Source: a phage
Sequence record: NC_105617.1
Direction: 5' to 3' (one strand)
DNA: 50,709 nt
This document shows, in pieces, positions 23,688 through 38,074 of the stretch. Made by a program: the position numbers and the translations under genes. A model generated the notes under the pieces. That model saw only the letters and a program-made list of their open reading frames with translations. It was not told the DNA's origin and searched no databases. Position 1 is the stretch's first letter; each line of letters begins with the position of its first letter.

Positions 23688-24104
23688 ATGCATATTATCA
23701 CTGGCGAGATCCGAAAAGAACCTAAGATTCTTGAACGCAACGGCGGCAACACTTATATCATCGAAATGGCAGAAAGCTACAAGCCTCGTGATGGAGATCG
23801 CGAATACACCAACTACACATTCTTTTTTAGCGACGGTGGAAAACCTGGGCTTGCTGATTGGTATCGTGAGGCGTTCCAAGTTGGTCGGGTAATCTCAGTA
23901 TCGTGCGAGACGTTGAAGATCTCATCCCGTGAACATAACGGAACGGTTTATAATTCATTACAGGCAGCTGACTTCCCTAAGCTGGTATTCAGTCAGCGAG
24001 GTCAAAGCAACCAGCAGCAACGATCGCCACAGCAACACGCTAATCAGCAGTCACAACCACAACCAAATCCTCAATCAACTTTCGACGACGATATTCCATT
24101 CTAA
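23688..24104 (+). CDS. ssb: Single-stranded DNA-binding protein
   Basis: 138 aa, Q/P-rich linker and canonical acidic tail ...FDDDIPF at the C-terminus. Confidence 0.8.
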   Translation: MHIITGEIRKEPKILERNGGNTYIIEMAESYKPRDGDREYTNYTFFFSDGGKPGLADWYREAFQVGRVISVSCETLKISSREHNGTVYNSLQAADFPKLVFSQRGQSNQQQRSPQQHANQQSQPQPNPQSTFDDDIPF

Positions 24105-37136: not shown

Positions 37137-37562
37137 TTATAAGTATTTGGCCTCAAAGGTTGTGCCGTCTGCGATACTAAAACCAACCTCTTCGCGAAAC
37201 AAGGTCCATCGACAACCATCTTCATCAAAGATGTAACCAGCTACGCCACCGAGAGCGCGACCGCTTTCAACCTGGTAACGCTTGCCAACTTTGAATGATT
37301 TTTTCATTGGGTTGCGATGGTCAAGCCCGGTGCACTTGAGCGTCTTTGTTTTCAACTCAGTGAACTTCGCGAAGAAGATTTCATCAGATCCGTGAATCTG
37401 TAATTCATCATGCTTTTCAAGTTTTAAATACTTGCCGCATTTTAACTTGATTTCACGAGTGCCATCATAGCGCTCTCTACCTTTGTACAGGTTGTTAACT
37501 TCAAATCCTGTGATTTTGTCTGCTGAAGTGCATTTAAGTTTGATGGATTTCATTGCGTTCAC
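37137..37562 (-). CDS. Hypothetical protein
   Basis: 141-aa ORF behind cassette with CCAATCAGGAG leader. Confidence 0.45.
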   Translation of the reverse strand: MNAMKSIKLKCTSADKITGFEVNNLYKGRERYDGTREIKLKCGKYLKLEKHDELQIHGSDEIFFAKFTELKTKTLKCTGLDHRNPMKKSFKVGKRYQVESGRALGGVAGYIFDEDGCRWTLFREEVGFSIADGTTFEAKYL

Positions 37563-37589
37563 TCCTGATTGGTTATCTTGAATAAGGCC

Positions 37590-37632
37590 ACTTTATCAAA
37601 TGACCTTACGGCAATATTAACAAATCGTGCTA
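37590..37632 (-). promoter_or_regulatory. Box-hairpin-(-10) cassette (minus)
   Basis: Minus strand tagcacgatttgttaat + 22 nt + TAAAGT; near-duplicate of plus cassette 45457-45505. Confidence 0.5.
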
Positions 37633-37633
37633 T

Positions 37634-37846
37634 TTACCAGGGAATATAATCGTCGTCGTCATTATCACCAATATCATCGCCGGGCATCTCGAAGTCGGGA
37701 TTATATTCACTTTCTGCGTCCATATCCATATTCCCTAGCGCGTCGTCAAGCGTAATTTCTTTATATGCAACCTTGATACACCATTCCGCACTAAGCCCGG
37801 CATCGAGCGCGGCAAAATAACGAGTCCAGAAATTATCCTGTTCCAT
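37634..37846 (-). CDS. Small acidic protein with SSB-tail-like C-terminus
   Basis: 70 aa; C-terminal 35 residues strongly acidic, ending ...GDNDDDDYIPW, resembling the SSB tail DDDIPF. Confidence 0.5.
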   Translation of the reverse strand: MEQDNFWTRYFAALDAGLSAEWCIKVAYKEITLDDALGNMDMDAESEYNPDFEMPGDDIGDNDDDDYIPW

Positions 37847-37849
37847 TAA

Positions 37850-38074
37850 TTAGCTCCATGAATTAATGTAAATCGAGTTAGCCTCAAGCGTTGCGCGAAC
37901 ATCCGCATCCGTTGCATTTACTAAGCGCGATCCTGGTGTGCTGCCAATAACGTTATTACCGTTCCGAGCCTTAGTTACCGTCATTGAAACAAAACCGGAA
38001 GACTTATCCATTTTGATAACTACACGTCCTTTCGCGTTCAGATGCTTGATGATATTCTCAACTTTAATACTCAT
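37850..38074 (-). CDS. Hypothetical protein
   Basis: 74-aa ORF behind a minus-strand cassette. Confidence 0.45.
   Translation of the reverse strand: MSIKVENIIKHLNAKGRVVIKMDKSSGFVSMTVTKARNGNNVIGSTPGSRLVNATDADVRATLEANSIYINSWS

Follow-up and report, generated by a model that had tools for sequence, protein, structure and literature searches.

A small acidic protein of a T1-like phage with a C-terminal peptide resembling the docking tip of SSB: a candidate anchor-directed mimic

The 50,709-nucleotide sequence NC_105617.1 (the window, by which the whole stretch analysed is meant) comes from a T1-like phage (Tunavirus, Drexlerviridae), and at positions 37,634 to 37,846 it carries a small gene whose 70-aa product ends in YIPW, a peptide resembling the C-terminal tip of SSB, the protein that binds single-stranded DNA. 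In bacteria more than 12 enzymes of replication, recombination and repair dock on SSB at this one tip, which has been validated as an antibacterial target. The translation of the open reading frame (ORF), MEQDNFWTRYFAALDAGLSAEWCIKVAYKEITLDDALGNMDMDAESEYNPDFEMPGDDIGDNDDDDYIPW, matches exactly the sequence quoted in an initial annotation made from the DNA letters alone, and the acidic C-terminal half described there is present; that the gene lies on the minus strand had not been stated. In the 3 kb around the gene, the window shows ~94% identity to phages SA30RD and LeonhardEuler/Bas13, and a coding sequence (CDS) is annotated for the gene in relatives, as hypothetical. The protein is covered over its whole length by the phrog_9085 profile (E=4.3e-46, protein residues 1-70 against profile positions 1-69 of 69), and no informative annotation was obtained for it from Pfam, NCBIfam, PDB sequence profiles or a Foldseek comparison with PDB. 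The features of the locus, together with the proteins compared with it, are collected in Table 1.

Table 1. Features of the 70-aa gene and its surroundings in the window, with comparators
Feature	Coordinates or record	Strand	Remarks
CDS, 70-aa protein	37634..37846	minus	stop codon 37634-37636; phrog_9085; counterpart of bas13_0048 of phage LeonhardEuler
N-terminal three-helix module, residues 1-38	37733..37846	minus	proposed anchor
Acidic element NMDMDAES (xMDxDxES), residues 39-46	37709..37732	minus	directly after the module
Hypervariable acidic linker, residues 47-66	37649..37708	minus	predicted disordered
SSB-type C-terminal tip YIPW, residues 67-70	37637..37648	minus	Phi-P-aromatic-COOH, followed at once by the stop
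Shine-Dalgarno GGAG	37854..37857	minus	7 nt 5' of ATG, within the last codons of the upstream gene
74-aa gene (phrog_4344)	37850..38074	minus	upstream of the 70-aa gene, same frame; TAA TTA alone between the two
12-bp RNA hairpin	37582..37609	minus	just 3' of the 70-aa gene; z=-2.95; no clear U-tract
141-aa gene (phrog_2684)	37137-37562	minus	downstream, between the 70-aa gene and the DUF3987 helicase
Phage SSB, 138 aa (comparator)	23688..24104	plus	ends FDDDIPF, identical to the E. coli host SSB tip
phrog_4823 example, 175 aa	L007 4001-4528, Klebsiella phage UPM 2146 (Ackermannviridae)		adjoins a DNA polymerase gene
Members with a Cys knuckle	P0068, P0073, P0075, P0080, P0085, P0088, P0096 and others		
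phrog_1811 carriers	IMG/VR contigs L038, L069, L099 (4580-4801), L028, L044, L129		

The protein has a three-part anatomy of anchor, tether and tip, with selection acting on the anchor and on the tip. Its net charge is -17.5, residues 39-70 containing 13 acidic and no basic residues and residues 1-38 having a hydropathy near neutral (grand average of hydropathy, GRAVY, -0.05). In an AlphaFold2 (AF2) model built on 25 homologues, helices are predicted at residues 6-15, 20-27 and 33-38, with block-mean values of the predicted local distance difference test (pLDDT) of 74-85 across residues 1-40, and residues 41-70 are left without secondary structure at block-mean pLDDT 53-57. No oligonucleotide/oligosaccharide-binding (OB) fold is present in this model, where three short helices are followed by a disordered tail. 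Among 33 representatives of the family sharing less than 75% identity, G17, L18, V26, L33, A36, L37 and G38 are invariant in the module. The xMDxDxES element directly behind it is conserved at M40 (97%), D41 (88%), E45 (100%) and S46 (85%), and is probably part of the binding surface of the anchor.

Close homologues of the protein number 63, all on T1-like contigs of ~50 kb, and among the full-length homologues of the T1 clade the extreme C-terminal YIPW never varies, in contrast to the acidic stretch that precedes it. In 15 unique T1-clade genes, none of the four tip codons changes its amino acid and two of the four vary synonymously only (TAT/TAC and CCC/CCT/CCG), while 16 of the 20 linker codons change theirs; selection on the tip is purifying, whereas the linker drifts. 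When 1.8 billion representative proteins were searched exhaustively with a profile, only 27 matched, to which a word-indexed profile search added more, and by tblastn the family was found in ~450 phage records, the hosts of which are Escherichia, Shigella, Klebsiella, Salmonella, Citrobacter, Enterobacter and Cronobacter. All family records inspected are Drexlerviridae of about 48-53 kb, and a locus search with a closer alignment returned T1-clade loci only.

Members down to ~35% identity have in common the module F.R...A.DAGLN.EW..KVA...TLD.ALG, followed by xMDxDxES, a clade-specific linker of 20-52 residues, and an end that reads IPF, IPW, FPF or LPF depending on the clade. In 124 of 132 unique members, [ILMFV]-P-[F/W] stands immediately 5' of the stop codon. 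Proline is found at position -2 in 117/125 members, the end is IPW in 59/125 and the terminal residue is Phe in another 59/125; in 29 of the 33 representatives I, L, F or M occupies position -3, and 41/132 members end in FPF with Arg-Cys before it. Across the same representatives the information content reaches up to 4.3 bits in the module and 2.7-4.1 bits in the last three residues (Pro 3.6-4.1, F/W 3.2-3.5), with the linker at ~0.8-2.4. All family members are acidic, with a clade mean net charge of about -8 to -18. The linker itself is acidic in the T1 clade, and in many Drexlerviridae clades, among them the Hanrivervirus-like and Tlsvirus-like ones, it is replaced just before the tip by a four-Cys CxC...CxxC knuckle (DCGCRGSxxCxxC-IPF or DCGCDFDPxCxRC-FPF), which is presumably a zinc-binding element presenting the tip.

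Two records contain truncated copies of the gene. In Shigella phage vB_SsoS_008 (MK335533; L006 401-697), the intergenic stop codon reads TAC and the 74-aa and 70-aa genes are fused, and a premature TAA after MDMD drops the tail, the tail-coding DNA downstream remaining intact and in frame. In IMG/VR contig 2974595650 (L022), the family copy translates to 28 aa only. These copies could be sequencing errors, or could mean that the tail is dispensable in culture, and since the fusion is a single record with a premature stop it is weak evidence either way.

The comparison of this tail with that of SSB was drawn in the initial annotation, which gave FDDDIPF as the end of the phage's own SSB, and this end is as stated there. 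Among the 308 window ORFs of at least 40 aa, two have a P[FWY] end, namely the phage SSB and the 70-aa protein. For the SSB tip it has been shown that the penultimate Pro is essential (ssb113) and that the terminal Phe is likewise essential (PMC3159472), that a hydrophobic pocket and a basic residue together recognise both the side chain and the free alpha-carboxyl of this Phe, and that a 'basic ridge' of the client contacts the Asp residues of the tip (PMC3159472). The family displays the penultimate Pro, an Ile/Leu, a terminal aromatic residue with a free carboxylate and a predicted disordered tail, and in the window protein P69 and I68 are invariant within the T1 clade. Judged from sequence, the weight of the resemblance lies in this conservation and not in alignment statistics. 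Among other C-terminal signals that were considered, a beta-clamp motif (QL[SD]LF / QLxLxL) at or near the C-terminus was found in 0/132 members, an FtsZ tail mimic (D-I-P-x-F-L) in 0/132, the family peptide stopping at the aromatic residue, and an ssrA-like end also in 0/132. As a side observation, the phage SSB is itself atypical, in that curated SSB models match its residues 71-138 only (E=5e-4, far below the family cut-off); since they match the C-terminal part only, its N-terminal DNA-binding domain is highly divergent.

The module together with ALGxMDxDxES, which the initial annotation had not singled out, is the most conserved part of the protein and is shared with proteins of Ackermannviridae that have no such tip. 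In these Vi1-like phages (~157 kb; 259 records), a 175-aa phrog_4823 protein has this module as well, together with ALGDMDMDAE, an acidic linker and an additional N-terminal domain, and at its C-terminus it has an amphipathic helix, AAWEWQNEKNAWLDSRL, where the Drexlerviridae family has the Pro-aromatic tip. The module is also common to phrog_9323, and in a third architecture (P0084) it is fused to a Cys-rich domain. Because different C-terminal ends occur on it, this helical module has the look of a portable anchor, and the C-terminal peptide that of a hook which can be exchanged.

The reading favoured here is that the 70-aa protein would be a modular early or middle phage factor, in which a helical anchor (residues 1-46, ALGxMDxDxES included) is linked through a flexible acidic tether, whose sequence would be dispensable, to YIPW-COOH, and in which YIPW-COOH would imitate the SSB docking tip DDDIPF-COOH. 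Known SSB clients include ExoI, RecJ, RecQ, PriA, the chi subunit of Pol III and DnaG. In this mechanism, the side chain of the terminal Trp and the free carboxylate would insert into the hydrophobic-pocket/basic-residue site of such clients, and the anchor would bind a second surface, adding specificity and avidity. One SSB client would be competitively blocked, possibly a host nuclease or helicase acting on single-stranded DNA (ssDNA) such as ExoI, and with that enzyme blocked and uncoupled from SSB-coated DNA, the 3' ssDNA intermediates formed in the recombination-dependent (RecE/Erf) replication of the phage would be protected. It seems somewhat more likely than not that a host or phage protein with a pocket of the SSB-tip type is bound by the tip, be it to block or to recruit that protein; that the protein is an anchor-directed competitive blocker of one SSB client is proposed more tentatively, at somewhat short of an even chance.

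An anchor-directed blocker is favoured because a free monovalent tip could be expected to bind weakly and without discrimination and to be in competition with the SSB of the phage itself, and because a phage that replicates through RecE/Erf-type recombination would gain from disabling SSB-stimulated ssDNA nucleases such as ExoI. The anchor is common to phages with an unrelated replisome, which points to a target in the host and not to a phage-specific one. The gene stands in a replication/recombination context: each of the subfamilies checked has it upstream of the DUF3987 helicase in the operon, and in the closely related LeonhardEuler the annotated replication and recombination genes include a RecE-like exonuclease, an Erf-like recombinase, SSB, a primase and helicases. 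The modelled disorder of the tail would also resemble that of the SSB linker. Also counted in favour are the recurrence of an exact DDDIPF end on an unrelated family (phrog_1811), the failure of rival C-terminal motifs to match any member, and the part of ExoI in DRT4 and DRT10 defence, which makes ExoI a timely guess. Imitation of the motif appears well supported by evolution, the target and the direction of the effect being proposals.

Several points weigh against this reading. The window protein ends in Trp and not Phe, and a Tyr is inserted between its Asp run (DDDD) and IPW. The fuller end [DE][DE]x0-1[IL]PF is present in only 5/132 members, and an acidic residue at positions -7 to -4 in 78/132; the large CxRCFPF clade has an Arg two residues before the tip and no acidic residue at -7 to -4. 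With these positions so variable, and with an Arg in CxRCFPF, the contact that acidic residues make with the 'basic ridge' in true SSB tips does not appear to be conserved. Five members end in IPFW, where the additional Trp would displace the carboxylate. Family-wide only the last three residues match SSB, and the claim rests on a motif of 3-7 residues. BLASTP of the tail against the phage SSB gave no match, and the SSB models of Pfam/NCBIfam match neither the 70-aa protein nor 21 family members, as would be expected of so short a motif; since profile and BLAST methods see no relationship to SSB, the resemblance is that of a short linear motif only. The tail would be dispensable in culture if the two truncated records (vB_SsoS_008 and the IMG/VR contig) are real. 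The phage's own SSB tip would be among the competitors of a general decoy, and the choice of ExoI as the client, like that of inhibition over recruitment, is a guess. The SSB-tail mimic first proposed from the sequence is partly supported: what has stood is the conserved tip, its purifying selection, the predicted disordered tail and the core rules of the SSB tip, and what has not is the complete DDDIPF end, from which the window protein departs by its Trp and extra Tyr.

An adaptor role is as compatible with this anatomy as that of a competitor. Here the anchor would bind either a DNA structure or a component of the phage replisome or recombination machinery, for example the DUF3987 helicase, the primase or the product of the 74-aa gene, and the tip would recruit a host SSB client, such as the Pol III holoenzyme via chi, PriA or DnaG, so that the protein would serve in trans as an SSB tail. 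The LeonhardEuler genome has no annotated DNA polymerase, so the phage presumably relies on the host enzyme; it has a primase and helicases of its own. A recruiting function would suit both this situation and the location of the gene within the helicase operon in all subfamilies checked. An anchor with a swappable hook and a linker that varies so widely in length would likewise be suited to tethering, and there is a precedent in T7, where the acidic, Phe-ended tails of gp4 and gp2.5 bind the polymerase. Such an adaptor would nevertheless duplicate what the phage SSB already offers, an exact DDDIPF tip on ssDNA, and as the same anchor is present in Ackermannviridae, whose replisome is quite different and includes a polymerase that they encode themselves, a replisome partner specific to Drexlerviridae is less plausible. 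The adaptor, the main rival of the blocker, is considered rather unlikely.

A further possibility is that the likeness to SSB is coincidental, and that the tip is a ligand for a receptor with another kind of pocket, either a partner encoded by the phage, for instance the 74-aa neighbour, or a C-terminal-peptide-binding protein of the host, or else a stability or degradation signal. The family and SSB have only three residues in common, 41/132 members place FPF after Arg-Cys and the window protein has a Trp, all of which would be understandable if the receptor were not an SSB client, and the 74-aa gene is conserved, translationally adjacent, in the same frame and, in one record, fused to the 70-aa gene. 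Against this stands the combination of Pro, terminal aromatic residue and free carboxylate on a disordered acidic tail, which is the published grammar of the SSB tip, as well as the occurrence of this tip on the genome's own SSB and of the exact DDDIPF in an unrelated OB-less phage family. The ssrA-like, clamp and FtsZ motifs are absent from the 132 members, and since no signal peptide or hydrophobic run was found in any of them, the periplasmic PDZ receptors of OMP-type ends are out of reach. A coincidental likeness is accordingly regarded as distinctly unlikely.

A polyanionic DNA mimic, which the initial annotation had offered as an Ocr-like alternative and in which the acidic half would imitate ssDNA or dsDNA and occupy the DNA site of a nuclease, a restriction enzyme or the OB fold of SSB, in the manner of Ocr, gp5.9 or the gp2.5 tail, with the tip as a minor add-on, could draw on the net charge of -17.5 over 70 residues, the acidity of all members and the conserved ALGxMDxDxES, but it is very improbable. 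The acidic linker is predicted to be disordered and is the least conserved segment, and in the sister clades with a Cys knuckle the residues preceding the tip are nearly neutral. Neither Ocr, ArdA and gp5.9 nor any PDB entry resembles the protein in sequence or fold, and the selection on the exact C-terminal residues and stop position is left unexplained.

When the 70-aa protein is set beside known systems, it is like the C-terminus of SSB (DDDIPF-COOH) in its disordered acidic tail with a hydrophobic-Pro-aromatic end, and unlike SSB in having no OB fold or ssDNA-binding domain, in its Trp for Phe and its Tyr after the Asp run, and in that the Asp triplet is not conserved in the family; SSB presents four tips. 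Another example of a phage-encoded tip of the SSB type is Bas52_0087, an SSB-like protein with the tip FDDDIPF, which is a DRT10 trigger proposed to interfere with ExoI (bioRxiv 10.64898/2026.04.29.721553). Unlike the helical 70-aa protein, Bas52_0087, for which an interface with host SSB clients (SbcB/ExoI among them) has been proposed, is predicted to have two OB folds and is presumably an ssDNA binder. As the latter has no OB fold, it would present its tip off DNA, or wherever its anchor binds. In T7, the SSB gp2.5 and the helicase-primase gp4 have acidic C-terminal tails ending in Phe, which dock on the phage DNA polymerase. T7 gp4 is thus a precedent for a replication protein other than SSB that shares its tail type and docking site with the phage SSB; the difference is that no phage polymerase is annotated here, going by the relative's annotation, and that the T7 tails have no Pro-aromatic tip.

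Synthetic peptide and small-molecule mimetics of the SSB C-terminus block SSB-client interactions and have been used in antibacterial design (PMC5872125, PMC10143822). The proposed competitive occupation of the SSB-tip pocket is common to these mimetics and to the 70-aa protein, the mimetics being artificial. Like the early phage proteins Ocr, ArdA and gp5.9, the 70-aa protein is small and very acidic; unlike these folded scaffolds with DNA geometry, its acidic part is disordered and unconserved, and selection is on the terminal tripeptide. The proteins of phrog_4823 and phrog_9323 are true homologues of the module, ALGDMDMDxE and acidic linker, phrog_4823 differing from the 70-aa protein in its extra N-terminal domain and in an amphipathic helix end in place of an SSB-type tip. 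Searches of open-access papers and bioRxiv preprints gave no description of the 70-aa family, of a natural OB-less protein with an SSB tip or of a natural protein decoy, and only synthetic mimetics of the SSB C-terminus and phage SSB-like proteins with OB folds were found. What would be new here is viral short-motif mimicry applied to the SSB hub.

If this reading is true, the SSB hub would have its first viral decoy or adaptor, a natural protein whose tip is presented in the absence of DNA binding, and this protein would provide a ready-made tool to separate SSB-client interactions in vivo. It would also give a function to a conserved 'hypothetical' gene in ~450 sequenced T1-like phages, many of which are therapy candidates, and would form a link to work on ExoI and phage SSB-like proteins that set the threshold of reverse-transcriptase defence systems.

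There are other phage proteins that have the SSB tip and appear to have no OB fold. When viral contigs were scanned for DDDIPF followed by TAA, at least 113 complete ORFs were found, which among the matches listed have a median length of 140 aa, with about a quarter at or below 115 aa, and some of the short ones among these are genuine mini-SSBs matching SSB PHROGs. One recurrent family of 73-76 aa (…KYEAEI…GIGEHPQF…DDDIPF), unrelated to the 70-aa family, matches phrog_1811 only, with no SSB match and no Pfam match; it looks helical from its sequence, and in the one contig inspected its gene is among DNA-metabolism-like genes. Further short DDDIPF singletons were seen in L116, L064, L137, L132/L138, L083/L100 and L112, several of them without an SSB signature. 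As phrog_1811 and several of the singletons carry DDDIPF without an SSB match, it seems that in phages the SSB tip has been acquired repeatedly by proteins that are not SSBs. DRT4 and DRT10 defence have been linked to ExoI and to SSB-like phage proteins that bear the tip. A broader proposal is that unrelated small OB-less 'SSB-tip hitch-hikers', as a class not recognised before, may block or hijack the host SSB interactome. The T1 member would then be a natural, anchor-targeted inhibitor of an SSB client (e.g. ExoI), and could act as an anti-defence factor or, conversely, as a trigger for the systems that monitor ExoI and SSB (DRT4, DRT6, DRT9, DRT10). This proposal is possible and on present evidence somewhat unlikely; its two candidates are phrog_1811, which has the exact DDDIPF, and the Drexlerviridae family, which has the portable helical anchor.

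With respect to the surroundings of the gene, the 74-aa gene neighbours the 70-aa gene throughout the Drexlerviridae subfamilies checked, and the gene order is constant in these, consisting of the 74-aa gene, the 70-aa gene, an optional Dcm methylase, two small genes and the DUF3987 helicase. The product of the 74-aa gene, a possible partner of the 70-aa protein, was modelled confidently as an alpha+beta fold, for which a fold search gave no informative match, and because of this fold it is not the missing OB fold. A weak PDB match of the same protein to a LigA BRCT domain (E=0.15-0.27) was not upheld by the fold search. The 141-aa downstream gene has a match to DUF7244 that is below threshold (E=0.006). 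Within the 70-aa CDS, a sigma-70-like promoter match (10/12) is found at 37700-37728 on the minus strand, and is probably due to chance, as 16 such matches occur in the region against a shuffled expectation of 12.5 +/- 4.1. In SA30RD, rho-independent terminators are annotated at the site equivalent to the downstream hairpin and also upstream of the 74-aa gene, and since these bracket the gene pair, the 74-aa and 70-aa genes look like a bicistronic cassette. Hairpins annotated in this way in SA30RD also bracket several other small genes of the leftward operon, which suggests that the hairpin-bracketed small genes are cassette-like units, or that the hairpins are RNA-stability elements.

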